From an uncultured Desulfobacterales bacterium (GTDB lineage Bacteria > Desulfobacterota > Desulfobacteria > Desulfobacterales > QNYZ01): a DNA stretch of 64,000 nt. The stretch lies in the NCBI GenBank assembly GCA_964577615.1, contig CAZNZW010000004.1, positions 11,511-75,510 of the forward strand. Direction: 5' to 3'. A model generated the notes under the pieces. That model searched no databases and had not been told where the DNA came from. It saw nothing but the letters and a program-made list of their open reading frames with translations. Shown one piece after another: positions 1 to 16,864 of this stretch (its first letter is position 1; every line of letters starts with the position of its first letter). The translations under genes were made by a program, and so were the position numbers.

Positions 1-1235
1 CCACCGATCCCATCGCCAATGCCGTTTTTTTCAGTATGCTGGCCAATGTGGGGGCCTATGTGGTGGGGTCGCTTTTCAGCCGGTCATCGGCCATGGAGCA
101 TACCCAGGCCGCGCTTTTCGTTGATGTGTTTCGATTTTCGCGCCAGGGACGTGATTCCCCTTTCTGGCGGGGAACGGCATCAATACCTGACCTGCGGGCC
201 CTTCTCGCCCGGTGTCTGGGGGAAGAACGGGCGGATTATGCCCTTTTTGCCTATGCGCAGAAACGGAATCTCAACTGGGACAAAAACGTCACGGCTGATG
301 CCGGGCTGGTGGAGTTTTCCGAAAAACTCCTCGCCGGCGCCATTGGATCCGCATCGGCCCGGGTGATGGTTTCTTCTGTTGTAAAGGAGGAACCGCTGGG
401 AATCGAGGAGGTCATGGGGATACTTGACGAAACCCGTCAGGTCATTGCCCACAGCCAGGAACTTGAAAAAGCGACCGACGAGCTGCGGGCGGCCAACGAG
501 CGTCTCAAAGAGCTCGACAGCCTGAAAGACGAATTTATCTCAACGGTGACCCATGAATTGCGGACGCCGTTGACCGCTGTTCGTTCCATCGCCGAAATCA
601 TTCACGACAGCCCGTCTCTCGGGGCCGAGCGGCGGGTAGAATTTGCCGGAATTATTATCAAGGAAAGTGAACGCCTTACCCGTCTGATCAATCAGGTCCT
701 CGATTTCCAGAAACTTGAGTCCGGCCGGATGGAATGGCAGATGGCAAAGGTTGACCTCTCCTCCGTGCTTCACCGGGCGGTCACCGGCATCAATCAGCTG
801 ATCCAGAACAAACATATACGGATCCATCTGGACCTCCCCGACCAGGTACCTGAAATAGACGGAGACAGGGACCGGCTGGTCCAGGTAATGATCAATCTCG
901 TGGCCAATGCGGTCAAGTTCTGCCCGGCGGATTCGGGCCGGATCGATATTTCACTCGTGGTCAAGCCAGCGGTTGTTCAGATCAATGTCAGGGACAACGG
1001 TTCCGGCATCACCTCTGATGAACAGAAGATCATCTTTGAAAGATTCAGACAGATCGCCGCCTCCGGCAAGGGCCGTCCCTCGGGCAGCGGGCTGGGGCTG
1101 TCGATCACCAAACATATCGTTGAATACCACGGGGGAGATATCTGGGTACAAAGCCGGCGCAATGAAGGGACGGTTTTCTCTTTTACGCTGCCGATTCACC
1201 GGCCGGACCACCACGGGGATCGAAACCGACCGTAA
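1..1235 (+). CDS. Sensor histidine kinase, C-terminal part (5' end is upstream of the window)
   Basis: The frame of ORF 36..1235 stays open back to the window edge. H-box EFISTVTHELRTPLTAV, N-box MINLVANAVKF, G1 VRDNGSGI and G2 GSGLGLSI indicate HisKA + HATPase_c. Confidence 0.9.
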   Translation, partial: TDPIANAVFFSMLANVGAYVVGSLFSRSSAMEHTQAALFVDVFRFSRQGRDSPFWRGTASIPDLRALLARCLGEERADYALFAYAQKRNLNWDKNVTADAGLVEFSEKLLAGAIGSASARVMVSSVVKEEPLGIEEVMGILDETRQVIAHSQELEKATDELRAANERLKELDSLKDEFISTVTHELRTPLTAVRSIAEIIHDSPSLGAERRVEFAGIIIKESERLTRLINQVLDFQKLESGRMEWQMAKVDLSSVLHRAVTGINQLIQNKHIRIHLDLPDQVPEIDGDRDRLVQVMINLVANAVKFCPADSGRIDISLVVKPAVVQINVRDNGSGITSDEQKIIFERFRQIAASGKGRPSGSGLGLSITKHIVEYHGGDIWVQSRRNEGTVFSFTLPIHRPDHHGDRNRP

Positions 1236-1310
1236 CTGCGCCATGCCTGTCCGCCCCGGGCCTGTCAGGTAAACCAATATCCTCAACGCCGGGCTCCGTT
1301 CCGTATCCCA

Positions 1311-3485
1311 TCAGTATTTCAACCGTGCCAGGTAGGTTTTCTGGGAGGCTTCCCTGGCGTCCTTGAGGGTGTAAATCCCCATCTCGAACAATAGCGGAAT
1401 AAGTTTTAAAAAAATATTCGCCGTGGCAATGGTGTCTCCCATCGCCGTATGGCGTCCCTGCACTTTCACGCCCATCCGTCTGGCAATATCCTCCAGCCCA
1501 TGGCCGCTGAGAGACGGATGCACCACGGCGGAGAGCAGAAGCGTATCCAGCACCGGATTGACAAATTTCAGGCCGGTATACCGTTCATTTATCTGCAGCA
1601 GGCGCATATCAAAGGCCGCATTGTGGGCCACCAGGACGGTTTCGTCAGCGAAATCGTAAAACCGGGGCAACACCTCTTCGATCGACGGCTGACCGGCCAC
1701 CATGTCGTCGGTAATCCCATGAAATTTTGTCGATGCGGCCGGAACCGCCCGGCCGGGATTGACCAGCTGATCGAATGGCTCGTCCGGAAGCAGACGGGCA
1801 TTGACAATGCGGACGGCGCCGATGGAGACAATCCGGTCCCCCCCATTGATATCCAGTCCCGTCGTTTCCATGTCAAACACCGTATAGGTCAGATCATCCA
1901 GGCGGCGGCTGTCGATCCGGTCATCCTGCCCCAGCTGATGAAAAAGATCAAAATCAAAAAATTCAGGCCGGCTTTCGGGGAGAATCGCCGCGCTCCTCTG
2001 CCGGAGCGGTTCGGAAGCGGTGTGCGCCGGCATAAAAATCCGGATATGCGGCCGGCTGCCGTCCGTTTTACCCGAATAGGCACCAATGTCCATGTGATGA
2101 TGACCGAGGATTTCTTTCAGCGTGAATGGCAGATGTTCCTCCCCGACCCGGATCGACTGATCTTCCCATATTTTCATCTGTTCGATCTTGACCGGATCGC
2201 CCGCCCAGACCATGTCGAGAACGATAAATCGCCCCGATTTTTTTAAAGACAGGGAAAGGCGGGATTGACCGCTGAAACGGTGCAGCCGGGCCAGGATAAA
2301 AACGGCTGCCAGGGTCATCGAATAGGTGTCGACCCGTACCCATCCACACGATTCATCCGTATCGCAGGTCAGCTGGAAACCGGCTATGCCCGCTGCTTTC
2401 TGAATAATCAGGTCGATCAGGTCCAGATCTTTGATAAACACCAGCGGCCAGCGCGTACCCGCACAGCAGCCGGCATACGCGTCTGATGTCTCGTCCAGTA
2501 CATGGCCCAGGGTCAGGGCCTGCTCATGAATCAAGTGAAAAAGCCGTGTCTTTTGGGCGGTGGACATGTCGGGATAGTCAAGGGTTGTTTCAATGGCCGA
2601 ACGGATGCCGGTAACGGCGGAGCGTACCTGTCGGGTCAACGTCTGCCAGAGAAAACGCGTGCGGCCTTCCACCTTCAGATCGGTCGTGATATCGTAGAGT
2701 ATGAGGACAAACCCGGCAAAGGCGTTGAGGTGATCCAGAATCGGGGCCGCCTCCACCCTGAGTGTCTGTGGATCCCTGTTAAGGACAAAATAGGCAGCCA
2801 TGTCCAGCTCTTTGTCGGCCAGCCGGGATTTCATCTCAGCCACGGCGTGCTGGATCATGTGAGGATCGATGAGATCATGAATCCATCGGCCGAGGCCGAC
2901 GATTTGATACGACCGCTGTTGACGGTCACCATCGCCACGGCGATTATTGCGGTTGGCGGCGAGAAAAAGTTTGGCGTGCTTGTTGTAGAGGAGAATTTTT
3001 CCGGCCGCATTGCAGATGACCACGCCCTCGGGCAATTCCGCCATGAAAGCCGCCAGAATATTTTTCTGGGTTTCCGATTCGGATCGCGCTTCGGTGATCC
3101 GGGCTTCGATGTCGGCCTGTTCCGATTCGATCTGCTCGGCCCATGCATTGATAATACCGGATAGTTTTACCAGCGTGCGGCTGCCGGCCGGCTGAATCCG
3201 GTGGGCAGGGTTCCCCGTGCGGATGAGTTCGGCCTCTTCGGCAATCCGGGCAACCGGAAAGACATACCGCTGCAGTACCCACACCAGTCCCGCGCCCAGT
3301 CCGAGCATCAACGCGCCGGTACCGACCAGGTAAAAGCGCAGTCCGCCCCGCAGGGTATCCGTCAACTGCATCTGTTGCGGGGGCGGCAGAAACAGCCAGA
3401 AAACAGAAAAGATACCGCAGAAAAGAACCAGGGGAAGGAATAAAGCAAAAACAGCCAGCAGATAGAATTTATCGGTCCGATTCAT
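1311..3485 (-). CDS. Membrane sensor fused to a DEDDh 3'-5' exonuclease (2 TM, HAMP/PAS-like region, His-less kinase-like core, DnaQ/Pol III epsilon-like C-terminus)
   Basis: Two N-terminal hydrophobic helices and a PAS-like stretch (AELPEGVVICNAAGKILLYNKHA). The DHp-like stretch FLWQTLTRQVRSAVTGIRSAIE aligns to an H-box but has Arg in place of His. Exonuclease motifs: FDMETTGL, HNAAFDMRLL, HTAMGDTIATA. Confidence 0.8.
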   Translation of the reverse strand: MNRTDKFYLLAVFALFLPLVLFCGIFSVFWLFLPPPQQMQLTDTLRGGLRFYLVGTGALMLGLGAGLVWVLQRYVFPVARIAEEAELIRTGNPAHRIQPAGSRTLVKLSGIINAWAEQIESEQADIEARITEARSESETQKNILAAFMAELPEGVVICNAAGKILLYNKHAKLFLAANRNNRRGDGDRQQRSYQIVGLGRWIHDLIDPHMIQHAVAEMKSRLADKELDMAAYFVLNRDPQTLRVEAAPILDHLNAFAGFVLILYDITTDLKVEGRTRFLWQTLTRQVRSAVTGIRSAIETTLDYPDMSTAQKTRLFHLIHEQALTLGHVLDETSDAYAGCCAGTRWPLVFIKDLDLIDLIIQKAAGIAGFQLTCDTDESCGWVRVDTYSMTLAAVFILARLHRFSGQSRLSLSLKKSGRFIVLDMVWAGDPVKIEQMKIWEDQSIRVGEEHLPFTLKEILGHHHMDIGAYSGKTDGSRPHIRIFMPAHTASEPLRQRSAAILPESRPEFFDFDLFHQLGQDDRIDSRRLDDLTYTVFDMETTGLDINGGDRIVSIGAVRIVNARLLPDEPFDQLVNPGRAVPAASTKFHGITDDMVAGQPSIEEVLPRFYDFADETVLVAHNAAFDMRLLQINERYTGLKFVNPVLDTLLLSAVVHPSLSGHGLEDIARRMGVKVQGRHTAMGDTIATANIFLKLIPLLFEMGIYTLKDAREASQKTYLARLKY

Positions 3486-3856
3486 GCCGGATCGTTGAGC
3501 AGCTTTCTGACATTTTCGATGATATCCATATTGGAAAACGGTTTGATGATATAGGCGTCCGCTCCCAGGACCATCCCCTTGGCCACATCCACATCCCGTC
3601 CCTTGGCGGTTAAAAATATAATTTTAACATGCTGACATTTCGGGTCCAGGCGGATGATTTCACATACCTCATATCCATCGATGCCCGGAAGCATGATATC
3701 CAGCAGAACCAGATCAGGATTATGCTTGCCGATTATTTCCAGCGCTTCTTCGCCGCTGCCGGCCACCAGTACGGTGTATCCGTTTTGTTCCATTAAAAAT
3801 TCGATGGGTACAACAATATTCGGTTCATCATCAACAATCAGAATCGTTTTGGGCAT
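3482..3856 (-). CDS. Stand-alone CheY-like response-regulator receiver
   Basis: ILIVDDEP, LVLLDIMLPGIDG, IIFLTAKG and IIKPF receiver motifs, with no output domain. Its stop overlaps the start of the downstream sensor-exonuclease (ATGA). Confidence 0.9.
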   Translation of the reverse strand: MPKTILIVDDEPNIVVPIEFLMEQNGYTVLVAGSGEEALEIIGKHNPDLVLLDIMLPGIDGYEVCEIIRLDPKCQHVKIIFLTAKGRDVDVAKGMVLGADAYIIKPFSNMDIIENVRKLLNDPA

Positions 3857-3912
3857 GACAGGCGTCCTTACCGCTGGCGGAAGAGTCAGCTTGTGAGAAA
3901 AGTCGGACGGGG

Positions 3913-3940
3913 ATTATGGTTCTCTCTCCCCTCTTTACAA
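3913..3940 (-). promoter_or_regulatory. Candidate sigma70-type promoter of the receiver / sensor-exonuclease operon
   Basis: On the minus strand: TTGTAA (3940-3935), 16-nt spacer, CATAAT (3918-3913), about 55 nt upstream of the ATG at 3856. The -35 lies inside one arm of the palindrome at 3931..3979. Confidence 0.3.
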
Positions 3941-3979
3941 AAAAGGTATTTTCTCCTTTTTACCATATTTTGTAAAGAG
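3931..3979. repeat. 12-bp perfect inverted repeat (CTCTTTACAAAA / TTTTGTAAAGAG)
   Basis: The arms lie within 3931-3944 and 3967-3979, separated by about 24 nt. The repeat sits between the prpE-like stop and the receiver start. It could be a terminator without a U-tract or an operator. Confidence 0.5.
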
Positions 3980-4058
3980 GAAAGAGTATATTTCGCTAAT
4001 ATTTGCCTGCTTCTGACCGATTTTCGCAGTTTCCTGCCCATCTGCCTTTTTGTTGAGC

Positions 4059-5972
4059 CTAAGTATCTCCGGTCCTGGCATAGCCGATATCCCTCAGCGC
4101 GTCCTTCATTTCACCGAGAATCGTGGGATCATCGATCGTCGCAGGGACTTTGTAGGGTTGATTGTCCGCAATCTTCTGAATGGTCCCCCGCAGGATCTTT
4201 CCCGAGCGGGTTTTGGGCAGGCGGGCCACCACGGTTGCGGTTTTGAAGGAAGCGACCGGACCGATGCGGTCCCGCACGGCCTGAATCACTTCTTTGATTA
4301 TTTCGGTCTTATCGCGGCTGACCCCGGCATTCAGGACGAGAAAACCAACCGGGATCTGGCCCTTGAGCTGATCCGCCACGCCAAGAACGGCGCATTCGGC
4401 CACGTCGGGATGATCGGCGAGCACCTCCTCCATGGCCCCTGTAGACAGGCGATGGCCGGCGACGTTGATGATATCATCGGTTCGGGACATGACAAACACA
4501 TAGCCGTCCTCGTCAATGAAACCCGCGTCCGCAGTTTTGTAATATCCCGGGAATTCATCCAGATACGACTCTATATATCGCGCGTCGTTGTGCCACAACG
4601 TCGGCAGACTGCCCGGCGGCAGCGGCAGCTTGACGGTCAGCGCGCCAATCTCGCCAGCCGGTACGGGGTGGTTGTCCGTATCAACCACCTGAACATTCCA
4701 GCCGGGCGCCGGCTTCGTTGGTGAGCCTTCCTTGACCGGATATGGATGCAGCCCCATGCAGTTGGCACAGATGGCCCATCCGGTTTCCGTCTGCCACCAG
4801 TGATCGATGACCGGTACGTTCAGGGCGTTTTCCGCCCAGTGCAGGGTATCCGGATCCAGGCGCTCACCGGCGAGAAAAAGGGTTTCGAATCCGGATAGGT
4901 CGTATTGCCGCATCCGCTCGGCCCGGGGATCCTCGCGCTTGATGGCGCGAAACGCCGTCGGGGCCGTAAAAAGACATTTGACCTTATGATCGGCAATCAC
5001 CCGCCAGAAGACGCCGGCATCCGGCGTGCCCACCGGTTTACCCTCAAAGAGGATTGTGGTGCATCCCCTGAAAAGGGGGCCATAGACAATGTACGAATGC
5101 CCGACAACCCAGCCGACGTCAGAGGCGGCCCAGTAAACATCCCCGGCATCCACATTGTAAATATTTTTCATCGTCCAGTTCAGGGCGACCACATGGCCGC
5201 CATTGTCCCGGACTACGCCTTTGGGTTCACCCGTGGTTCCCGACGTGTAGAGGATATAGAGCGGATCCGTGGCCGCCACCGGTACACAGTCATGGGGCCG
5301 GGCCGCGGCCATGGCCGTCTGCCAGTCCACATCCCGGCCGGCATTCATGTCAGCCGCCTGCTGGGGCCGCTGATAAATCACGCATTTACCGGGCCGGGCA
5401 TCGGCGGTGGACATGTCGATGGCCTCATCGAGAAGCGGTTTATAGGGGATCACACGGGTCACCTCAATGCCACAGGAGGCAGACACAATGACTTTTGGCT
5501 TGGCGTCGTTGATCCGGGTGGCCAGCTCATTGGCGGCAAACCCTCCGAAAACAACGGAATGCACGGCACCCAGACGGGCACAGGCCAGCATGGCGATGGC
5601 GGCCTGGGGAATCATGGGCATGTAGATCAGCACCCGATCCCCTTTTTGAACGCCCAGATCAGCCAGAACGCCGGCAAAACGAGCCGTTTCGTCCCGCAAT
5701 TCTGAAAACGTATAGGTCTTGACGGTATGGGTTACGGGACTGTCATAAATCAGTGCCGCCTGGCCGCCCCGGCCGCTATCAACATGTCTGTCAAGCGCAT
5801 TATAACATGTATTTAGCTCACCACCTGTGAACCATCTATAGAAGGGTTTGTGGGTATCATCCAGCACCTTGTCCCATTTTTTATACCAGTGGATACTCTC
5901 GGCGGCTTCCCCCCAGAAGCCGTCGGGATCCCTGATGGATCGTTCAAAGGCGATTTCATAAGGGTTGGCCAT
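4059..5972 (-). CDS. prpE: Propionate--CoA ligase-like acyl-CoA synthetase (PrpE/Acs family)
   Basis: The start is set at MANPYEIAFERSIRDPDGFWGEAA (ATG 5972, SD AAGGAGGG upstream). FYRWFTGGELNTCYNALDRHV, YTSGTTGEPKG, DHWWQTETG and LPKTRSGKILR motifs are present. The N-terminal pattern resembles PrpE more than Acs. Confidence 0.82.
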   Translation of the reverse strand: MANPYEIAFERSIRDPDGFWGEAAESIHWYKKWDKVLDDTHKPFYRWFTGGELNTCYNALDRHVDSGRGGQAALIYDSPVTHTVKTYTFSELRDETARFAGVLADLGVQKGDRVLIYMPMIPQAAIAMLACARLGAVHSVVFGGFAANELATRINDAKPKVIVSASCGIEVTRVIPYKPLLDEAIDMSTADARPGKCVIYQRPQQAADMNAGRDVDWQTAMAAARPHDCVPVAATDPLYILYTSGTTGEPKGVVRDNGGHVVALNWTMKNIYNVDAGDVYWAASDVGWVVGHSYIVYGPLFRGCTTILFEGKPVGTPDAGVFWRVIADHKVKCLFTAPTAFRAIKREDPRAERMRQYDLSGFETLFLAGERLDPDTLHWAENALNVPVIDHWWQTETGWAICANCMGLHPYPVKEGSPTKPAPGWNVQVVDTDNHPVPAGEIGALTVKLPLPPGSLPTLWHNDARYIESYLDEFPGYYKTADAGFIDEDGYVFVMSRTDDIINVAGHRLSTGAMEEVLADHPDVAECAVLGVADQLKGQIPVGFLVLNAGVSRDKTEIIKEVIQAVRDRIGPVASFKTATVVARLPKTRSGKILRGTIQKIADNQPYKVPATIDDPTILGEMKDALRDIGYARTGDT

Positions 5973-6164
5973 TTTTCCCTCCTTATTTCCTGCTGTCAGC
6001 TGCGTTAAAGGTTTGATGGCGGTTTTTCCCCGGGAATAAGGGCTTTCGGATATCGGATGGCGGTCTCGACGATTATCGCCTGCGCGATATCCAGCGATCA
6101 GCGCCCGCAACAGCATACCGCCGGGCGTATCCTCCCCCATTATCCGAAAGCCGGGGCAAACCGG

Positions 6165-8198
<2,034 letters not shown>

Positions 8199-8341
8199 GA
8201 GCTCCCCTCCTCATTTCTGTGTAGATGTTGGTGATTGTCCGATTCGGCGTATCTCGTACCGAATTTTCCAGATACTGCCCGGTGCGAAAACCGCTCTCTG
8301 CGGCATGATACAAACTTTGAATACAATTTATTATTTTATCG

Positions 8342-8371
8342 AGTATAAATTATTTACTGCCCGCATGTCAA
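8342..8371 (-). promoter_or_regulatory. Candidate sigma70-type promoter of acs
   Basis: On the minus strand: TTGACA (8371-8366), 18-nt spacer, TATACT (8347-8342), about 140 nt upstream of the acs ATG. Confidence 0.4.
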
Positions 8372-8438
8372 GAAAATTCTCGTTCATAACGTCTGCCCGC
8401 CCGGATATTTCCCATGCAACAAGCCGCCTTGCAAGGCC

Positions 8439-8984
8439 TCAGCGTTTTGCCTTTTTGATAATGGCCACATCCTCCTCATTGATGACCCCGTCATGATTTA
8501 TATCGGCGGAAAAAGGCGCTTCATTAATCGGAAAAAACAGACCGGCAACCAGATTTCCCGCTTTTTCTTTGAAAAAAGGAAATTGCAGAACCGGCTTTGT
8601 ATTGCCGTAGCGCATATTAATAGTGACAGAGCCTTCTCCGCTGGATTTAAAAATCGGATAGGATTTTCGGACATCATCAATACCCAGCTTTGTCTTTATG
8701 GCCCAGACCTTATAATAATAAAACAATTCTTCGGGACGCCTTTTCCGGTATCGGGCAATCAGCGCGGGCCAGGTGGCGGGAGGGTGACCATTCTCCAATA
8801 TTGTTTTAAGAATATATCGGGTCTGGTTGACTGCCCGCTTGTCCGATATGCTGATCGCCATACGATTCAGTTGAATCAGAATTTCATCAAAAAAACTGGT
8901 CCGATAGTGCCGGGAAAGCAGGAATACAGTACCGTAAACAATTGTTGACAGGAGGATTAAGGTAATCGCGATTCTTTTGGGCAT
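8439..8984 (-). CDS. Hypothetical membrane-anchored protein with a C-terminal EF-hand/dockerin-like Ca-binding loop
   Basis: N-terminal hydrophobic helix (ITLILLSTIVYGTVFLL) and C-terminal DINHDGVINEEDV (D-x-N-x-D-G-x-I-x-x-x-D pattern). The codon usage is visibly more AT-rich than in the neighbouring genes. Confidence 0.55.
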   Translation of the reverse strand: MPKRIAITLILLSTIVYGTVFLLSRHYRTSFFDEILIQLNRMAISISDKRAVNQTRYILKTILENGHPPATWPALIARYRKRRPEELFYYYKVWAIKTKLGIDDVRKSYPIFKSSGEGSVTINMRYGNTKPVLQFPFFKEKAGNLVAGLFFPINEAPFSADINHDGVINEEDVAIIKKAKR

Positions 8985-9157
8985 ATTGTTTTACAGCGCT
9001 CTGAGGGGTTCGTAAAAAACCGAAGCTGTTCAATATCGGGTCCTGAATTATTTTAAAAACCGCTGAGACCCTTCATATTAAACATATTTTTTTATCATAC
9101 CGCAAGCCCCCAGAACAATCAAGCGTCTTCATATATAATAAAAGCATAAAATCTCTC

Positions 9158-9186
9158 TTGACATTAATATGTATTATTGAGATACA
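9158..9186 (+). promoter_or_regulatory. Candidate sigma70-type promoter of the symporter operon
   Basis: TTGACA (9158-9163), 17-nt spacer, GATACA (9181-9186), in an AT-rich divergent intergenic region. Confidence 0.3.
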
Positions 9187-9251
9187 GAAAGTATGATCCC
9201 GTTTAATTTAGTGAACGGTATTTATCAATCTATTACCAAGGAGGGAAAAAG

Positions 9252-9509
9252 ATGAGTGAGAATTCAAGGGAGGAGTACTGGCGACAAAACATCAGACTGG
9301 TCATCGGATGTTTGATCGTGTGGTTTGTCGTTTCTTTCGGGTTCGGTATCATCCTGGTTCATCCGCTCAACGCCATTTCAATCGGCGGTTACAAACTCGG
9401 TTTCTGGTTCGCCCAGCAAGGTTCTATCTATGTCTTTGTGTTTCTGATTTTTTTCTATTCCAATCGGATCGGAAAACTGGATAAAAAATTCGGTGTCGAA
9501 GAAGAATAA
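9252..9509 (+). CDS. Small membrane subunit of a sodium:solute symporter (DUF4212 family)
   Basis: An 85-aa, two-helix protein (YWRQNIRLVIGCLIVWFVVSFGF...GFWFAQQGSIYVFVFLIFFY) located immediately upstream of an SSS transporter. Strong SD (AAGGAGGGAAAAAG-ATG). Confidence 0.85.
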   Translation: MSENSREEYWRQNIRLVIGCLIVWFVVSFGFGIILVHPLNAISIGGYKLGFWFAQQGSIYVFVFLIFFYSNRIGKLDKKFGVEEE

Positions 9510-9522
9510 AAGGAGATAAATC

Positions 9523-11280
9523 ATGAGCTTGAAACTTATGACATACCTTGTTGTGGGGGCGACTTTTGCCCTTTACATTTACATTGCCATTCGCTCCAAA
9601 GCCAAAAACACCGGCGATTTTTACATTGCCAGCAAAGGTGTCCATCCGATTTTCAACGGCATGGCAACCGGTGCCGACTGGATGTCGGCCGCATCGTTTA
9701 TTTCAATGGCCGGTCTGATCGCTTTTCTGGGTTACGACGCATCGGTTTATCTGATGGGCTGGACCGGTGGGTATTGTCTGCTGGCCATGCTGCTGGCCCC
9801 GTATCTCAGAAAGTTTGGAAAATATACCGTTTCCGAATTTATCGGGGAACGGTACTATTCCAATACGGCCAGAATGGTCGCCGTGATTTGCCTGATCACT
9901 GCATCGGTTACCTACGTTATCGGTCAGATGAAGGGCATCGGCGTCGTCTTTTCCCGGTCCCTGGATGTCTCTTTTCAGATGGGTATTTTTATCGGCATGA
10001 TTATCGTTTTTATCTATGCGGTGTTCGGCGGCATGAAGGGCGTCACCAATACCCAGGTTGCTCAATACTGCGTGCTGATATTTGCCTATACCGTACCGGC
10101 CATTTTTATCGCTTTTCAATTGACCGGCATGCCCATTCCCCAGCTGGGGCTTGGCAGTACCATGAGCACCGGCCACGGCATGTACCTTCTGGATAATCTC
10201 GATAAAATCCTTGTTGATCTGGGGTTTGCCAAATATACGGCCCAGAAGATGTCAACAACGAACATGCTCTTTCTGACCATGTCGCTGATGATCGGAACCG
10301 CCGGCCTGCCCCATGTGATCATGCGCTTTTTTACCGTTCCCAGCGTCAAGGATGCCCGCTCATCCGCCGGCTGGGCGCTTGTCTTTATCGCCCTGCTTTA
10401 CACCACGGCGCCGGCCGTGGGTGCCATGGCCCGCATGAATCTGATGCACACGATCCAGAAGGGAGAAGTGGGCAGTGTCGATGGAAACATCGAATATGCA
10501 AAAGTACCAGCCTGGTTCAAAAGCTGGGAAAAAACAGGCCTGCTGAAATTCGAGGATAAAAATGGAGACGGCCGGATTCAGTACTATAGTGAAAAAGGGC
10601 TGAAAAATGCCGCGTCGTACGGCTGGAAAGGCAACGAAATGGTAAAGGTTGACAGGGATATCATGGTTCTTGCCAATCCTGAAATCGCCGGACTGCCCAA
10701 CTGGGTCATCGCGCTGGTCACCGCCGGCGGGATTGCGGCGGCATTGTCCACGGCAGCGGGGCTTCTGCTGGCCATCGCCACCGCGATTTCTCATGACGTC
10801 CTCAAGGGCTGGCTGATGCCGGACATCGATGACAAAAAGGAATTGTTATATTCCCGCATAGCCATCGGCGCCGCCATTCTCGTTGCCGGCTATCTGGGTC
10901 TGAACCCACCGGGTTTTGCCGCGCAGGTTGTGGCGCTGGCCTTTGGTCTGGCGGCATCTTCCATCTTCCCGGCCATCATGATGGGAATCTTTTCAAAGCG
11001 CGTAAACAACAAGGGCGCCGTGGCCGGCATGCTCTGCGGTCTGGGCAGCACCCTGGTTTACATCTTTATTTATAAGGGCTGGTTCTTCTTTAAATCAACG
11101 GCCATGCTCCCCGATAACGTGGGGCACTGGCTGTTCGGTATCAATCCCCAGGCCTTCGGTTTTGTCGGCGCGCTGATCAACTTTCTGGTGGCATATCTGG
11201 TGTCCCGCAGCACCGAACCGCCTCCCGAGAGAATTCAGAAACTGGTTGAGGACATTCGCGTGCCCATTGCCAGCAAATAA
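9523..11280 (+). CDS. Sodium:solute symporter, VC_2705-like subfamily (likely acetate/short-chain carboxylate uptake)
   Basis: A 585-aa polytopic SSS-family sequence paired with a DUF4212 gene. The substrate is inferred only from the acs/prpE context. Confidence 0.88.
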   Translation: MSLKLMTYLVVGATFALYIYIAIRSKAKNTGDFYIASKGVHPIFNGMATGADWMSAASFISMAGLIAFLGYDASVYLMGWTGGYCLLAMLLAPYLRKFGKYTVSEFIGERYYSNTARMVAVICLITASVTYVIGQMKGIGVVFSRSLDVSFQMGIFIGMIIVFIYAVFGGMKGVTNTQVAQYCVLIFAYTVPAIFIAFQLTGMPIPQLGLGSTMSTGHGMYLLDNLDKILVDLGFAKYTAQKMSTTNMLFLTMSLMIGTAGLPHVIMRFFTVPSVKDARSSAGWALVFIALLYTTAPAVGAMARMNLMHTIQKGEVGSVDGNIEYAKVPAWFKSWEKTGLLKFEDKNGDGRIQYYSEKGLKNAASYGWKGNEMVKVDRDIMVLANPEIAGLPNWVIALVTAGGIAAALSTAAGLLLAIATAISHDVLKGWLMPDIDDKKELLYSRIAIGAAILVAGYLGLNPPGFAAQVVALAFGLAASSIFPAIMMGIFSKRVNNKGAVAGMLCGLGSTLVYIFIYKGWFFFKSTAMLPDNVGHWLFGINPQAFGFVGALINFLVAYLVSRSTEPPPERIQKLVEDIRVPIASK

Positions 11281-11304
11281 ATAACCGTTACATCCAAAAC
11301 AAGA

Positions 11305-11340
11305 AAGACGCCGCCCGGATCATGGGAGGCGTCTTTTTTG
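11305..11340 (+). terminator. Rho-independent terminator after the symporter
   Basis: Stem GACGCC (11307-11312) / GGCGTC (11328-11333) followed by TTTTTT (11334-11339). Confidence 0.7.
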
Positions 11341-11495
11341 TTATTTCCGGGTATCGATCCAGATATCGGCCCGGATTCCGGATAAATCCCCCCTCGCCTT
11401 TCCATCATTTTTATAGTACAGTATTCATATTCGCGTTAAGACAAGCTGTCCTGCGCATGAATACGACCTGGCAAGATCCCCACCGAGGAGCGGCC

Positions 11496-13826
11496 ATGAA
11501 CTCGGAAATTTTCTCATTCTTAGCTGATATGCCCCACTTTTCCCTTCTTCCCGAAGCGGAAATCAAAAAAGTGGCCGCATCGGGCACGGCCAGGCAATAT
11601 GACGCCGGAACCGTTGTGGCCGTGGCCGGACAAACCCGCATTAAAGAAATCTTTGTCGTTATCAAGGGGGCGCTGTCTCTTTTTGATGAAACCGACGGGC
11701 AGCGGAAACCGGTGGGATCAATCCGGGAAGGCGAGATTTTCGGCGGCATCACCATCGAGATGAACAACGGAATTTCCCTCAAAACAGTCGTTGCCGAACA
11801 AACCTGCGCGGGCTATGCCATCCCGGCGGATATTTTTCAGGATCTATGTGTCCACCATCGAGACTTTTTTGAATACTTCATCGAACATTTCAGTCATAAC
11901 ATCTCCGACCCCTCCCTTTTCGCCATCATAGAAACCGGCCAGACCCGATATTTTCTCACCACGCTGGCGCCATTTTCCTTTCTTCCCGAAGAAGAGATCG
12001 ACCGGGTTGTTTCGTCGCTGTCCGTTGTCAAATATGCCGAAAACACGATTCTCTTTGTACAGCAGCATTCCCGCATCGGACATCTGTATATTCTCCAAAA
12101 GGGTGCAGCCGAGCGCTATTACGAAACCCGAAAAGAAAAAACCATGCGGGGGATCCTGAGCGAAGGCGACCTGTTCGGCGGCATTTCCATTCTGCACAAC
12201 GACGGTGTGGCGGTTCGCAGTTTTCGGGTCACCGAGCCCTCGATATTTTATCTCCTGCCCAAAGCCGATTTTCTCGCGCTATGTGAAAACTATCCGGTTT
12301 TTATAGAATATTTTACCGATATTTTCGGCAAGCGGATGCTGGAAAAATCCTACGCCGCCCTTATCGCCAAAACAACACACCCGCCGGAGATGGAGAACCA
12401 GTTTTTCAACCAGCCCATCTCGTCCATCTGCACGATGGAGCCGATATTCGGAGATACCGGCATGTCGATTCAGGCGGCGGCCGGCGTCATGCAGCGGCAG
12501 CAGATCAGCGCGCTTTTTCTGAAATCACCCGGCGGCGACTGTGCGGGGATCGTGACGGAAAGGGACCTGGCGCGGCGGGTGGTCGCGCCGGGCCACGCCA
12601 TCACGGGGCCGGTATCTGAAATCATGTCCTCCCCGGTGATTACCTTTCCCATTGATGCACCGGTTTTTGAAGCCTGCATGGCCATGATGCAGCAGAACAT
12701 CCGGCACCTGGCCATCCGGGACACCCAGAATGAGGTGGTGGGCATTCTTTCCAATCGGGATATTTTAAAAAACCGCGGCCAGTCTCCGCTTTTTCTGATC
12801 CGGGAAACCGGTGACGCCGACGACATGACCAAACTCATTGAAAAACAGCACCGGCTGCCGGCAGTACTGCAGGAACTGGTCTCCAGTGGTGCCCATTCCA
12901 AAAACCTGACCCGGTTTATTTCAACTTTTTCCGATGTTATTTTAGATAAAATCATCGGGTTTACCCTCAACGAACTGGGGCCGCCGCCCGCCCAGTTTGT
13001 TTTCATGATCCTGGGCAGCGACGGCCGGTTCGAGCAGACCCTGAAAACCGACCAGGACAACGCCATTATTTACGAAGATGTCCCGTCGGATGCACAGGAA
13101 AGCGTCAATGCGTATTTTCTCCGCTTTGGCGAAACGGCCTGCGCTCTATTGGATCAGGCCGGATATACGTTCTGCACGGGGAACATCATGGCGCAAAATC
13201 CGGAATGGTGTCTGTCTCTGTCACAGTGGCAGGCCAAATTTTCCAGATGGATTCATGCCGCCGGCCCGGAGGATCTGCTGCATGCCAGCATCTTTTTCGA
13301 TTTTCGATGCGGATATGGCGACTGCGCTCTCATCGACCGGTTGCGGACATTTTTATTTGATTCATTGGAAAAAAGGCGGGGATTCTTTACTTACATGGCT
13401 GAAAATGCGCTCAGGGCCCGCCCGCCCCTGGGATTCTTTCGCAATTTCGTGGTTGAACCGAAGGGCAAACACCGCAGCAAATTCGACATCAAAAAGGCCA
13501 TGCTGCCCATCGTCGACCTGGCCCGGGTCTATGCCCTGAAAAACAAAGTCGAAACCACCAATACACTGGAGCGGCTGTACGACCTGAAACTTAAAAATGT
13601 GTTCACCCTCAGTCAATTCGATGAACTTGAAAAGGCGTACAGCTTTCTGATGCAGCTGCGTCTGGTCCGACAGATTACCGCCATCCGCGATGAAGGCCAG
13701 CCGCCGGACAATTATATTAATCCCAAAAAACTGACCCAGATCGAACAGAAAATGCTCAAGGAAATTTTCAGGCGGATCGAGTCGTTTCAGTCCAAAATGG
13801 AGGTTGACTTCACCGGTACCATTTAA
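11496..13826 (+). CDS. Signal-transduction protein: 2x cNMP-binding + CBS pair + DUF294 (Pol-beta-type) nucleotidyltransferase + DUF294_C
   Basis: The start is set at MNSEIF (GAGGAG SD 5 nt upstream). Two cNMP-binding-like regions, CBS-like stretches (VSEIMSSPVITFPIDAPVFEACMAMMQQNIRHLAI) and the NTase motif FVFMILGSDGRFEQTLKTDQDNAII are present. Confidence 0.85.
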   Translation: MNSEIFSFLADMPHFSLLPEAEIKKVAASGTARQYDAGTVVAVAGQTRIKEIFVVIKGALSLFDETDGQRKPVGSIREGEIFGGITIEMNNGISLKTVVAEQTCAGYAIPADIFQDLCVHHRDFFEYFIEHFSHNISDPSLFAIIETGQTRYFLTTLAPFSFLPEEEIDRVVSSLSVVKYAENTILFVQQHSRIGHLYILQKGAAERYYETRKEKTMRGILSEGDLFGGISILHNDGVAVRSFRVTEPSIFYLLPKADFLALCENYPVFIEYFTDIFGKRMLEKSYAALIAKTTHPPEMENQFFNQPISSICTMEPIFGDTGMSIQAAAGVMQRQQISALFLKSPGGDCAGIVTERDLARRVVAPGHAITGPVSEIMSSPVITFPIDAPVFEACMAMMQQNIRHLAIRDTQNEVVGILSNRDILKNRGQSPLFLIRETGDADDMTKLIEKQHRLPAVLQELVSSGAHSKNLTRFISTFSDVILDKIIGFTLNELGPPPAQFVFMILGSDGRFEQTLKTDQDNAIIYEDVPSDAQESVNAYFLRFGETACALLDQAGYTFCTGNIMAQNPEWCLSLSQWQAKFSRWIHAAGPEDLLHASIFFDFRCGYGDCALIDRLRTFLFDSLEKRRGFFTYMAENALRARPPLGFFRNFVVEPKGKHRSKFDIKKAMLPIVDLARVYALKNKVETTNTLERLYDLKLKNVFTLSQFDELEKAYSFLMQLRLVRQITAIRDEGQPPDNYINPKKLTQIEQKMLKEIFRRIESFQSKMEVDFTGTI

Positions 13827-13965
13827 CTAATGCACGGGCGTATAATATACTTTTACAACATATTAGATATACTTTCCTATTGTATTTGTTTAACTTATGC
13901 TTTGCCCTGTCTCACCCGCAAAAGACGACGCCGGGGATATTCGCCAATACATCTGACAGACGGAT

Positions 13966-15114
13966 TTATACCGGCTTTTTTCTCTTCCCATATCCCATCA
14001 GGCCGTCTCCCCGTAAAAACAGGGGATTGAATCCCGGGGCATGATGAATCCCCCACCGCACCAGATCGTGAAACCAGCCGGCCGGTTTGTTGAACGGACA
14101 GACCCGGATGCAATTGGCGCAGTCGGTACCATTTTTCGCCCAGAATGACAGACAGGTCTCGGCATTGATATGCCACGCCCGTACCCCTTCCCGGTTGGAA
14201 ATGTTGTGGATTTTTTCAGAAGGCCCGCCATGCATGATGCTCTGGCTGGGGCATTTCCGGGCGCATTTCTTACAGATCCGGCAGAATTCCCAGACACCAA
14301 ACGAAATCGGCCGGTCCGGCCGCAGGGGCAGATCGGTCAGGACTTTGGCCAGCCGAATCCGGGGGCCGAAGGCCGGGGTCACCAGCAGGCCGTTTCGGGC
14401 CATTTCCCCCAGGCCGGCATCAATGGCAATGGGAATGCTGCAGGCCGTATCGTTGCCACAGGGGATCGCCTGATACCCCAGCCCCCGGATATATTGCGCC
14501 AGCAGGCCGGCCGTGAAGGCCATTTTGGAATATCCCGTCCCGGTGGCCGCCGAAGCGGCTGCCGACGGCGACGTCCGGAGGGTTGGATAATCCATCTCCA
14601 CGGCAAGGGCAATGGCGGTTCGAAATGTGTCGGGGATGACGTTTTCCGCCGGCTTTCCCCCTTCCGAGGTCAGCAGATAGGCCGGGTCATAGAGCCAGCG
14701 CCGGTCCAGGTCACAGATTCCCACCAGCGAGGCCCCGAACAGCCGGGCCGCCTGTTTCACCGGTCCGGCCATGCGCCGGGCCACATCGGCCGATATTTTC
14801 AGGCCGGCCGGTACCCGGGGAAAACTGAATTTGCCGCTCCACTGCCAGCCGTACAACCCCATGCGGCCGCCGCGCACGCCCTGGGCAAACTCCCCTTCCA
14901 CCCGCCAGGACGCATTGGTCAGCGCCATGTCGGCCAGCCGATACCCGGGCCGGTCTCCGGGCATCACCGGCGCACGATAAAACCGGTCTCCCAGTTCCGC
15001 CAGGGCCGGGTCCCACCAGGGCCGCTTAAACATCTCGTTTTTCTGGTCAAAAGGCGTGATCCGGCCGACCACATACCGGCTGGCGCCCCGGTCCACATAG
15101 GAAAACGTTTTCAT
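13966..15114 (-). CDS. Reductive-dehalogenase-family (RdhA-like) corrinoid/Fe-S protein, cytoplasmic type
   Basis: FGASLVGICDLDRRWLYD, GYSKMAFTAGLLAQYIRGLGYQA, and GNDTACSIPIAIDAGLGEMARNGLLVTPAFGPRIRLAKV. Fe-S motifs CRICKKCARKCP and C-x10-CANCIRVCP. There is no twin-arginine signal. At 382 aa it is short for the family. Confidence 0.72.
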   Translation of the reverse strand: MKTFSYVDRGASRYVVGRITPFDQKNEMFKRPWWDPALAELGDRFYRAPVMPGDRPGYRLADMALTNASWRVEGEFAQGVRGGRMGLYGWQWSGKFSFPRVPAGLKISADVARRMAGPVKQAARLFGASLVGICDLDRRWLYDPAYLLTSEGGKPAENVIPDTFRTAIALAVEMDYPTLRTSPSAAASAATGTGYSKMAFTAGLLAQYIRGLGYQAIPCGNDTACSIPIAIDAGLGEMARNGLLVTPAFGPRIRLAKVLTDLPLRPDRPISFGVWEFCRICKKCARKCPSQSIMHGGPSEKIHNISNREGVRAWHINAETCLSFWAKNGTDCANCIRVCPFNKPAGWFHDLVRWGIHHAPGFNPLFLRGDGLMGYGKRKKPV

Positions 15115-15192
15115 CGTCCCGCTTCTGTATTATTGTAAATGACTGTGATTGTGATATGGTGCCGTTTCAGTTAACATGGCCGGTGCCGCTTG

Positions 15193-15219
15193 GCAATTAA
15201 TCGGCAGATAATTAATGGC
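15193..15219. promoter_or_regulatory. Imperfect palindrome GCAATTAAT-N9-ATTAATGGC between the RdhA-like and D-LDH-like genes (candidate operator)
   Basis: The 9-bp arms match at 8 of 9 positions, centred near 15206 in the 204-bp divergent intergenic region. Confidence 0.3.
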
Positions 15220-15318
15220 TGCTGAGCGCTGAAAACAGGCGTCGCGGCGGTGACTGCCGTTAATCGACGCTGTTCAATCGACAATCGCCAATAATTTTTA
15301 CACCACCCGGAGAGCCCA

Positions 15319-16710
15319 GTGACCCACCCGCCCCTTTCATCCACCGACCTCGCCGCCCTGTCGGCCATGGTTGACGCGGATCGTTTTTCCACCGGCGACT
15401 CGGTGCTGGATCTGCATGCCAGAGACCAGTCCCATCACCGCCCCCACAGGCCGGAAGCCGTCATCTGGCCAGTCAAGACATCCGAAGTGGCCGCCATTGC
15501 CGCCTATGCCAATGCGCACGGTATTGCTGTGACCGGCTGGGGATCCGGATCCAGTCTGGAAGGCAACCCGATTCCGGTCAGGCGGGGAATTGTTCTCGAT
15601 TTTTCCCGCATGAACCGGATTCTTTCCATCCAGGCGGAAAACTTTCAGGCCGATGTGGAGCCCGGTGTCATCTACCAGGATCTTAATGCCCGTCTGCGGC
15701 ACACCGGCCTCTTTTTCCCGCCCGATCCCGGCGCCCGGGCCACCATCGGCGGCATGATCGCCAACAATGCCGGGGGCACCACCACCGTTCGGTACGGTTC
15801 CACCAAGGATTATGTACTGAAGCTATCCGTGGTGCTGGCCAATGGCGAACTTATCGACATGGGCTGCCGGGTTAAAAAAACATCTTCCGCCTATGATCTG
15901 ATCCGCCTCTTTGTGGGATCTGAAGGAACCCTGGGCATCGTTGTGCGGGCCACGATCCGGCTGGTGGGACTGCCCGCGGAATTTTCCGCGACGATTGCCA
16001 ATTTTCCATCGGTGGAAGCGGCCAGCCGGGCCGTGTCTGAACTGATCCGGGCCGGCCTGGATCCGGCCGCGCTGGAGCTTCTCGACGCCGAGTGTATTCG
16101 ACTGATCAACCGCGAAAAGCAGCTGGGCCTCAATATCTCCCCCACCCTCTTTATGGAATTTCAGGGGCCGACATTGAATCAATTATCGGAAACCATGGAG
16201 ATGGCCCAGACGATCTGCGAAGAAACCGGATGCAGCGAATTCAGAACCGGGCTGGGCCGGCAGGAACGGAACCGCCTGTTTGAGGCCCGGCATGAGCTGG
16301 GAGAAATGGTCGTCCGCAACCATCCGGACGGCCGCATCCGGGTGATGGACATGGCCGTTCCCATTGCCACCTATCCGGAAATGATCGCCGATGCCCGCCA
16401 GGCCCTGACCGCGTCGGGACTGTCCGGTTATATCTTCAGCCACGCCGGCGACGGAAATATCCATATCAACGTCATCGGCCGGAAAAACAACTCCGCTCAA
16501 TGGGCACAAGTGGATCAGCTGACCGACCAGCTGGTGCAAAAAGCCCTGGATCTGGACGGCACGGCCACCGGCGAGCATGGGGTCGGCATCGGCAAGCGCC
16601 CATTCATGAAAGCGGAACATGGCAGCAGCCTGGCCTGGATGCAGCGGATCAAGTCTCTTTTTGATCCCAACAACATCCTCAACCCCGGGAAAATTTTCCC
16701 TGCCCCATAA
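15319..16710 (+). CDS. FAD-linked oxidase, D-lactate dehydrogenase / GlcD-like
   Basis: FAD_binding_4-type N-terminus (VIWPVKTSEVAAIAAYANAHGIAVTGWGSGSSLEGN) and a C-terminal GTATGEHGVGIGKR motif. GTG start. The gene lies upstream of lutABC. Confidence 0.85.
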   Translation: MTHPPLSSTDLAALSAMVDADRFSTGDSVLDLHARDQSHHRPHRPEAVIWPVKTSEVAAIAAYANAHGIAVTGWGSGSSLEGNPIPVRRGIVLDFSRMNRILSIQAENFQADVEPGVIYQDLNARLRHTGLFFPPDPGARATIGGMIANNAGGTTTVRYGSTKDYVLKLSVVLANGELIDMGCRVKKTSSAYDLIRLFVGSEGTLGIVVRATIRLVGLPAEFSATIANFPSVEAASRAVSELIRAGLDPAALELLDAECIRLINREKQLGLNISPTLFMEFQGPTLNQLSETMEMAQTICEETGCSEFRTGLGRQERNRLFEARHELGEMVVRNHPDGRIRVMDMAVPIATYPEMIADARQALTASGLSGYIFSHAGDGNIHINVIGRKNNSAQWAQVDQLTDQLVQKALDLDGTATGEHGVGIGKRPFMKAEHGSSLAWMQRIKSLFDPNNILNPGKIFPAP

Positions 16711-16808
16711 AACCCGAAAAACACGAAAACAACAGACTTATGTTAAAAAAACAGTGCAACGCCACACCGCAGACCGCCAGAAATCAATTTTCAACCGTTA
16801 ACCTGATG

Positions 16809-16845
16809 CCGTCGTCACCGGATGGCGGTGATGTCGGTTTTTTTT
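16809..16845 (+). terminator. Rho-independent terminator between the D-LDH-like gene and lutA
   Basis: 12-bp stem CCGTCGTCACCG / CGGTGATGTCGG (one wobble, one mismatch), loop GATGG, then T8 (16838-16845). Confidence 0.65.
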
Positions 16846-16864
16846 CCGAAACGGACAATCAGCC

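Follow-up and report, generated by a model that had tools for sequence, protein, structure and literature searches.

We analyzed a 64,000-nucleotide stretch of DNA, hereafter the window, from an uncultured Desulfobacterales bacterium (contig CAZNZW010000004.1). Positions 1-13826 form a locus of monocarboxylate uptake and activation, with acs, a prpE-like ligase, and a two-subunit VC_2705 symporter, in which a conserved signalling module is embedded. On one side of these genes lies a membrane-anchored sensor-exonuclease and on the other a DUF294 nucleotidyltransferase (NTase) with cyclic nucleoside monophosphate (cNMP)-binding and CBS domains, just as an earlier reading made from sequence only had placed them. 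Across genomes, DUF294 genes are linked with exonucleases, sodium:solute symporters (SSS), and acs far above chance, and in four loci the input module that precedes the exonuclease in the window is instead fused to the NTase. We consider it possible, if on balance rather doubtful, that a non-transcriptional path leads from a sensor kinase through a bare receiver to a dead-kinase module and so to the exonuclease or the NTase, and that the writing and erasing of a nucleotidyl mark, on a protein or a small signal, tunes monocarboxylate uptake and activation.

Proteins of the DUF294/COG2905 group and their partner exonucleases are widespread, and they belong to the set of Pseudomonas genes that short-chain fatty acids induce most strongly, with no substrate assigned. 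In the Desulfobacterales form, the wiring can be read off directly, as a kinase of the CrbS/CbrA family, an output-less receiver, and a dead-kinase adaptor carried by either enzyme are found together. If the two enzymes do act as writer and eraser, the assimilation of acetate, propionate, and lactate would be subject to a new form of control, post-translational or by second messenger, and two-component systems would have a new kind of output. If they do not, their co-occurrence still marks both genes as accessory to monocarboxylate symport systems.

The list of open reading frames (ORFs) and scans with Pfam and NCBIfam agree with the gene content described earlier for positions 1-13826:

3..1235, + strand: C-terminal 410 amino acids of an SLC5/STAC sensor histidine kinase, comprising the dimerization and histidine phosphotransfer (DHp) domain and catalytic core (HisKA, HATPase_c)
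1311..3485, − strand: sensor-exonuclease, 724 amino acids, membrane-anchored; two transmembrane helices, linker, PAS, His-less module resembling DHp and catalytic (CA) domains, DEDDh domain
3482..3856, − strand: stand-alone receiver, 124 amino acids (Response_reg, E 2.5e-29)
4059..6140, − strand: prpE-like AMP-forming acyl-CoA synthetase (ACAS_N, AMP-binding, AMP-binding_C), 24 bp downstream of acs
6165..8198, − strand: acs, acetyl-CoA synthetase (TIGR02188, 766 bits, cut-off 725; NF001208, 784 bits, cut-off 657)
9252..9509, + strand: DUF4212 symporter small subunit (PF13937, E 1e-33; TIGR03647, 111 bits, cut-off 26.05)
9523..11280, + strand: large subunit of a VC_2705-family sodium:solute symporter of monocarboxylate type (TIGR03648, 845.5 bits, cut-off 320.75)
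11496..13826, + strand: sensor NTase, 776 amino acids; two cNMP-binding domains, CBS pair, DUF294, DUF294_C (Pfam; identical database protein)

The host genome is an 89%-complete, 3.1-Mb metagenome-assembled genome (MAG) whose closest protein relatives are annotated as Desulfobacterales. It contains one true DUF294 gene and two RNase_T genes.

Linkage of DUF294 genes with exonucleases and carboxylate transport

We compared DUF294 genes in a sample of 201 genomes spread evenly over the phylum of the window, using the Pfam models DUF294, RNase_T, and SSF. Up to 20 kb around each DUF294 gene was taken, giving 92 non-overlapping loci, and expected counts were derived from genome size and copy number. 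The sample held 103 DUF294 genes in 63 of its genomes. An RNase_T gene lay within 15 kb of 40 of them and was directly adjacent, on the same strand, in 26. The adjacent genes were always separate frames, and no fusion of NTase and exonuclease occurred in the 201 genomes. By tblastn, 27 of the 92 loci contained an exonuclease, where 0.5 would be expected (an iterated hidden Markov model raised the count to 30), and 39 contained an SSF symporter, where 1.4 would be expected. An acs-type ligase was present in 12 loci, and at least one of exonuclease, SSF, and acs in 53. At the level of whole genomes, 62 of the 63 with DUF294 had an SSF gene, versus 48 of the 138 others. Linkage of DUF294 with exonucleases, SSS symporters, and acs is far above chance, which bears out the co-occurrence that the sequence-only reading had proposed to check. 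Related genomes are not independent, so p-values are overstated; nonetheless, the linked pairs are found in 18 families and in varied gene order.

Among the 80 species-level loci closest to the window NTase, 34 had an exonuclease within 10 kb, 28 of them of the long sensor type and usually directly upstream of DUF294; an SSF symporter was present in at least 42. Three relatives at 41-46% identity again have the receiver/exonuclease pair beside DUF294, acs, and an SSF symporter, in three different gene orders and with a symporter of the DUF485/ActP type in one. Loci L007 and L008 likewise have a sensor-exonuclease within 10 kb of DUF294. The linkage is asymmetric: members of the short partner-exonuclease clades are almost never found away from DUF294, while most DUF294 genes have no exonuclease. 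The sensor-exonuclease itself occurs in 8 of the 201 genomes, and all 8 also have DUF294, compared with 63 of 201 overall. The two are linked in 4 of these; in 1 the contig is too short to tell, and in 3 the receiver and kinase are kept with no DUF294 within 10 kb.

Two further observations concern the range of contexts. In L022 (G030:C1) and L041 (G069:C1), a short exonuclease lies between two DUF294 genes, one of the cNMP-CBS type and one of the CBS type, beside an ActP-like symporter, an arrangement in which two NTases may share a single exonuclease. Loci L163, L164, L165, and L167 hold the closest species-level relatives of the window NTase (64-67% identical) and have no exonuclease, symporter, or acs within 10 kb, so close DUF294 paralogues or orthologues exist outside a carboxylate context.

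Kinase, receiver, and an exchanged input module

The strongest evidence that NTase and exonuclease may be alternative or paired outputs of one receiver-dependent pathway comes from a swap of input modules between them. In four Desulfobacula/Desulfobacteraceae MAG loci, a single ORF encoding 730-760 amino acids joins PAS and a His-less kinase module to DUF294 and DUF294_C:

L213:8834-11032
L216:2572-4803
L238:~8777-11038
L215:~8807-11020

In a BLASTP comparison, the window exonuclease (residues 141-543) and the L213 protein (residues 5-393) share 30% identity (E 6e-62) up to a common "ELTYT" junction. Pfam confirmed the NTase domains of these swapped-output homologues and gave a weak HisKA match (E 7e-5). 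Three of the four loci have an SLC5/STAC kinase and a receiver and lack any exonuclease within 10 kb; the fourth, L215, combines a short exonuclease with a VC_2705 symporter, acs, and a prpE-like ligase. A gene with HDOD and SpoIIE/PP2C-like domains directly 5' of the L213 fusion (L213:7061-8803, +) was considered as an alternative eraser by comparison with SidD and rejected, because the other fusion loci do not share it.

A third input architecture, of about 980 amino acids, places a periplasmic sCache_2/dCache domain, PAS, and a CBS pair before DUF294. It has no exonuclease nearby and only occasionally a symporter. Examples, with about eight similar loci, are

L013:9225-12206, − strand: Cache-PAS-CBS-DUF294
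L059:7856-10756, + strand: Cache-PAS-CBS-DUF294

In the window, the module stands on the exonuclease. Two N-terminal transmembrane helices, a weak PAS-like stretch, and the His-less DHp/CA-like module precede an RNase_T domain (PF00929) at residues 536-692 (E 5e-38, 131.8 bits). The H-box reads TRQVRSAVTGI, with Arg288 replacing the phospho-acceptor His in at least 90% of 32 relatives (40-65% identity), and by this substitution the module is a DHp/CA-like pseudo-kinase. The catalytic domain looks active, since all five DEDDh residues (D538, E540, D626, H679, and D684) are kept and are invariant in the same 32 relatives. Clustering the family at 90% identity gives at least 168 groups, almost all with proteins of 720-730 amino acids. 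Across 94 exonuclease domains placed in one tree, those of the sensor type, 11 in all, group together as a single clade (Shimodaira-Hasegawa-like approximate likelihood ratio test [SH-aLRT], 91), with a grade of short DUF294-adjacent enzymes on one side and housekeeping enzymes resembling PolC, epsilon, and DinG on the other. Long frames that look sensor-like in the high-GC loci L017, L040, and L110 were set aside as stop-free artefacts upstream of ordinary short exonuclease genes.

The exonuclease had been described as having acquired its own membrane sensor and its own receiver. The sensor is there, as transmembrane helices with a PAS/pseudokinase part; the receiver turned out to have its own gene, which shares 4 nt with the start of the exonuclease gene and is translationally coupled to it rather than fused. 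The receiver retains the full phospho-acceptor set (D9, D10, D53, T83, and K105). A homologous 124-amino-acid receiver gene lies directly 5' of the sensor-exonuclease in all relatives inspected, and in L228, L213, L216, and L238 a small receiver directly follows the SLC5/STAC kinase gene. A receiver that adjoins either the kinase or the pseudo-kinase protein is the pattern expected of a go-between.

The histidine kinase that was noted as convergent to the exonuclease is a protein of 917 amino acids, the first 507 of which are encoded upstream of the window (gene start G000:C4:9992). Pfam and NCBIfam gave no match in its first 679 residues, and an AlphaFold model of the whole kinase, with a predicted local distance difference test (pLDDT) of 60, was too poor and was not used for fold search. 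Its identity came by one route only, the search of solved structures with a profile of 24 homologues, which matched the SLC5-STAC structure of CbrA (PDB 10ED) over residues 6-627 with an E value of 1.1e-86. This entry is the cryo-electron microscopy structure of the SLC5-STAC part of Pseudomonas CbrA (PMC13488458). There is also a weak, in-register BLASTP match between the kinase and the window's own symporter (E 9e-4), and JGI names for its homologues include "Na+/proline symporter/histidine kinase." The profile match places the kinase among the SLC5/STAC "transceptors" of the CbrA/CrbS family, and no other SLC5/STAC kinase is encoded in the host genome. Of the DUF294/exonuclease loci retrieved, 21 contain a homologue, some of them alongside a short exonuclease.

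The kinase ends after HATPase_c at residue 917 and lacks a CrbS-type C-terminal receiver. The sole receiver near it is the 124-amino-acid single-domain protein, which has no DNA-binding or sigma-54 domain. We found no DNA-binding regulator in the locus or in the 10 kb upstream of the kinase, where housekeeping genes lie, and no LuxR-type regulator in the 25 kb inspected. We count this, together with the bare receiver, in favor of a non-transcriptional wiring.

The nucleotidyltransferase and the choice of substrate

By its Pfam matches, the window NTase belongs to the DUF294/COG2905 sensor nucleotidyltransferases: DUF294 (PF03445) scores 155.5 bits against a cut-off of 21 and DUF294_C (PF10335) 158.4 bits against 22.5, alongside two cNMP_binding and two CBS domains. 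The Pol-beta-type motif (GS...DxD) is intact: GSDGRFEQTLKTDQD. G71, S72, D83, D85, and the third acidic residue, D166 (numbered along a 340-amino-acid segment), are invariant in all 47 aligned relatives. The NTase thus looks active, and the loss of catalytic residues that would have spoken against a nucleotide-adding role is not what we see. Three class III cyclases are encoded in the host genome, which makes a cNMP input to the NTase plausible.

A sequence search of PDB with the NTase protein returned CBS and cNMP domains only and no solved structure for the NTase part, and no GlnE or GlnD family model was among its Pfam and NCBIfam matches. We therefore turn to a predicted structure, an AlphaFold model of residues 495-834 of the 834-amino-acid frame that begins at 11322 (mean pLDDT 82.7, predicted template modelling score 0.82). 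Foldseek gave significant matches to GlnE AT-N (1v4a, E 3.3e-7), GlnE AT-C (3k7d, two chains, E 1.3e-6), and DrrA in its complex with Rab8a (6yx5, E 3.4e-6), all four with template modelling scores of about 0.6. The next tier, at E values above 0.01, consists of aminoglycoside adenylyltransferases and MNT/HEPN pairs, and no poly(A) polymerase, CCA-adding enzyme, cGAS/OAS, or GGDEF protein is among the 50 listed matches. This agrees with the placement of DUF294_C in the same Pfam clan as the C-terminal domains of GlnD and GlnE (PMC3710099). According to the model, the NTase core and helical domain have a GlnE/DrrA-like fold, that of protein AMPylases and de-AMPylases. Such a fold makes a protein or small-molecule acceptor more likely than an RNA 3' end. 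The sequence-only reading had offered a protein, an RNA 3' end, or a small oligonucleotide signal as the target; the predicted fold favors a protein or a small molecule and disfavors the RNA.

These observations can be drawn together in the following scheme. The SLC5/STAC transporter-like kinase would sense carboxylate availability or flux and phosphorylate the 124-amino-acid receiver. The phosphorylated receiver would dock on the His-less DHp/CA module of the membrane protein, as DivK~P does on DivL, and switch the DEDDh domain. In parallel, the GlnE/DrrA-like NTase would transfer a nucleotidyl group, gated by cyclic nucleotide and, through its CBS pair, by adenine nucleotides. The most likely acceptor would be a pathway protein: Acs or the acyl-CoA ligase, the symporter, or the symporter small subunit. 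The exonuclease would hydrolyze the same phosphodiester-linked nucleoside monophosphate (NMP) and free 5'-NMP; its release from protein-O-P-O5'-nucleoside would be chemically analogous to the action of DEDD enzymes at a 3' end. The pair would then set carboxylate uptake and activation post-translationally, in analogy with Pat/CobB acetylation of Acs, and de-nucleotidylylation by a DEDD exonuclease would add a new activity to that superfamily.

We put forward this combination, gating through kinase, receiver, and pseudokinase plus protein nucleotidylylation by DUF294 that the exonuclease erases, as a tentative proposal to which we give rather less than even chances. We infer the wiring and the protein acceptor, the docking of the receiver from its invariant gene adjacency and the acceptor from the predicted fold. 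That the exonuclease removes the mark of the NTase is the weakest step and is speculative.

Several points weigh against the proposal. Removal of NMP from a protein is not known for any DEDD exonuclease. Among solved structures, the exonuclease domain is nearest to DNA proofreading domains (PolC, epsilon, DinG, and ExoX), above all to the PolC exonuclease domain 2p1j (E 5e-29). A 97% branch parts the sensor-type clade from the short DUF294-adjacent partners, among which it is not nested (the rooting is uncertain), so the tree does not demonstrate that the two have a common origin or that the short partners gave rise to the sensor type. In the window, exonuclease and NTase lie 11 kb apart on opposite strands. 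About two-thirds of DUF294 loci have no exonuclease nearby, and the NTase therefore does not need one. The literature searched held no biochemical activity data for any DUF294 protein or partner exonuclease. In Pseudomonas, deletions of the corresponding genes PP_0353 and PP_0354 have mild phenotypes and no effect on acetate (PMC9927547; bioRxiv 10.64898/2026.09.07.749794).

One alternative keeps the writer and eraser and changes the mark. The NTase would make a small nucleotide signal, such as an NMP-metabolite adduct or a linear dinucleotide or oligonucleotide, and the DEDDh exonuclease would degrade it, in the manner of GGDEF/EAL or cyclase/phosphodiesterase pairs. The reader of the signal would be an unassigned receptor, possibly the cNMP/CBS domains, the symporter, or Acs. 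Interchangeable inputs such as those seen here (cNMP/CBS, Cache-PAS-CBS, and PAS-pseudokinase with receiver) are a hallmark of messenger-making and messenger-breaking enzymes. DEDDh enzymes, moreover, need a 3'-terminal nucleotide in a phosphodiester, as in oligonucleotides, and the second tier of fold matches consists of small-molecule adenylyltransferases. There is a precedent in PorX, a response regulator that hydrolyzes signalling oligonucleotides (PMC9757075). We nevertheless regard a messenger as unlikely: the best fold matches of the NTase modify proteins, with none to cGAS/DncV/OAS or GGDEF-type synthases, no candidate receptor has emerged, and most DUF294 genes are without a partner exonuclease.

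Another alternative gives up the shared substrate. The two enzymes would be separate outputs of carboxylate signalling, or one would regulate the other, as when the NTase modifies the exonuclease, the kinase, or the receiver, and they would be co-located only through co-regulation. The window pair belongs to different transcription units, three sampled genomes keep kinase, receiver, and sensor-exonuclease with no DUF294 gene within 10 kb, many DUF294 genes have the symporter as sole neighbor, and deletions of PP_0353 and PP_0354 give partly different phenotypes. Set against this are the 26 pairs adjacent on the same strand, the near absence of the short exonuclease clades away from DUF294, the single input module swapped between both enzymes, and the presence of DUF294 in every sensor-exonuclease genome. 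A pair without a shared substrate seems improbable, about as much so as a messenger.

The weakest alternative is RNA control, in which the NTase would tail a specific RNA 3' end (acs or symporter mRNA, or a small RNA) and the exonuclease would trim or degrade it, and so control how strongly the uptake genes are expressed. In its favor, a role of PP_0353 in mRNA degradation was put forward as speculation by Henriquez et al., and the RNase_T family includes RNA exonucleases. We find it quite improbable given an NTase fold of the GlnE/DrrA rather than the poly(A) polymerase or CCA-adding kind, a C-terminal domain of the GlnE/KNTase type, a membrane-anchored exonuclease whose closest solved relatives act on DNA, and no Rfam family or conserved structured RNA in the locus (scan of 1-16000, E ≤ 1). 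The same scan gave a sub-threshold match to an archaeal snoRNA inside the exonuclease gene, which we dismissed.

Carboxylate context and known systems

The transport and activation genes around the signalling module were assigned with NCBIfam models. The DUF4212 and VC_2705 symporter genes are separated by a 13-bp gap, and the pair of models that defines the two-subunit symporter, TIGR03647/TIGR03648, is matched in full. For the ligase at 4059..6140, propionate-CoA ligase is the best NCBIfam match and falls below the PrpE equivalog cut-offs (TIGR02316, 708 versus 827; NF007815, 752 versus 955), so that "prpE-like" is, at the level of these models, an apt label. The start of the DUF294 gene is most likely 11496, because an identical 776-amino-acid protein is in the database; a start at 11322, which would give the 834-amino-acid frame, was judged unlikely.

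Upstream of acs we noted one further feature:

8342..8371, − strand: sigma-70-like promoter candidate for acs, TTGACA-18-TATACT (11 of 12 consensus positions; a consensus match only)

Between this candidate and the symporter operon, in an AT-rich spacer (8199-9251, GC about 0.44), lies an ORF of 181 amino acids (8439-8984, −) with an N-terminal hydrophobic segment and one dockerin/EF-hand-like loop (Dockerin_1, E 9e-4, below the cut-off). Comparison of the intergenic regions 5' of the receiver, acs, symporter, DUF294, and kinase genes for a shared operator gave only scattered 9-mers and one weak hairpin, and there was no intergenic match to the ACTU motif, for which we used a rough consensus built from four published sites, an approximate motif only.

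Directly 3' of DUF294, positions 13966-19056 encode a short RdhA-like iron-sulfur protein, a flavin adenine dinucleotide-linked oxidase resembling D-lactate dehydrogenase, and genes of the LutA/LutB type. Price et al. found that DUF4212 symporter genes are cofit with the neighboring COG2905 gene on lactate or D-alanine and guessed that the latter is needed for transporter expression (10.1101/072470). Taken with these fitness data, the lactate-type genes downstream suggest that the symporter locus may serve lactate in addition to acetate and propionate.

The NTase/exonuclease pair itself is already published as an unexplained target of CrbS/R (MxtR/ErdR). In P. putida KT2440, PP_0354 (cNMP-CBS-NTase) and PP_0353 (RNase_T) form one operon that is bound directly by ErdR/CrbR, and both are among the most ErdR-dependent transcripts; growth on propionate is reduced by deletion of either gene and growth on pyruvate by deletion of PP_0353 (PMC9927547; bioRxiv 10.64898/2026.09.07.749794). 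In P. aeruginosa, PA3232 and PA3233 adjoin actP and yjcH, and the cluster is up about 16-fold on propionate (PMC9765439), and in P. fluorescens the CrbS/R regulon includes Pflu5625 (PMC5715377). The sequence-only reading had suggested that the trio of symporter pair, DUF294 protein, and nuclease also neighbors CrbS/CrbR-controlled acetate loci in Vibrio and Pseudomonas. For Pseudomonas, this is supported by these papers on PP_0354/PP_0353, PA3233/PA3232, and Pflu5625. For Vibrio, the one fact obtained is that VC2702 of V. cholerae is crbR (PMC5436829), and VC2702 is rejected as a Vibrio exonuclease; by locus number it lies three genes from VC_2705, after which the symporter family of the window is named.

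The window system shares with PP_0354/PP_0353, PA3233/PA3232, and Pflu5625 the same families, a cNMP-CBS-DUF294 protein and a DEDDh exonuclease, and the same ties to acs, to symporter genes for acetate, propionate, or pyruvate, and to an SLC5/STAC kinase. It differs in layout and, in the proposed reading, in control. The Pseudomonas pair is one operon with a short exonuclease (about 200-250 amino acids) under transcriptional control by LuxR-type CrbR/ErdR and the ACTU motif, whereas here the genes are far apart, and the exonuclease has transmembrane helices, PAS, a His-less module, and its own receiver, with a catalytic domain in a separate clade. We found no description of this Desulfobacterales variant, an SLC5/STAC kinase with a bare receiver and a dead-kinase adaptor on exonuclease or NTase, in the literature searched.

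Like the kinases of CrbS/CrbR, CbrA/CbrB, and RpuS/RpuR, the window kinase has an SLC5-STAC sensor and adjoins carboxylate genes; CrbS governs acs and actP. Unlike CrbS, it has neither a C-terminal receiver nor PAS, and its presumed output is an enzyme, the exonuclease here or the NTase in other genomes, rather than transcription. The closest parallel to the proposed reading of the receiver is DivL-DivK of Caulobacter, in which a His-less kinase reads a phosphorylated single-domain receiver and DivL controls CckA. The window's His-less DHp/CA module, as far as its residues tell, is similarly paired with a stand-alone receiver; unlike DivL, it forms one polypeptide with a hydrolase or, in other genomes, with a transferase.

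Acs is under post-translational control in known systems, through Pat/CobB and through a mycobacterial cAMP-gated acetyltransferase with a fused cNMP-binding domain. Those systems use acetylation, whereas nucleotidylylation is proposed here, with Acs as a conjectural target. For the proposed nucleotidyl mark itself, the precedents are GlnE, GlnD, and DrrA/SidM with SidD, whose reversible nucleotidylylation follows the same writer/eraser logic. The erasers there are an NTase-fold phosphorylase (GlnE), an HD domain (GlnD), and a PP2C-like enzyme (SidD), and to our knowledge never a DEDD exonuclease. By sequence, the window NTase does not fall significantly within the GlnE or the GlnD family; in its predicted fold, with the helical domain included, it resembles GlnE AT-N and AT-C and DrrA, and its DUF294_C domain shares the clan of the GlnD/GlnE C-terminal domains.

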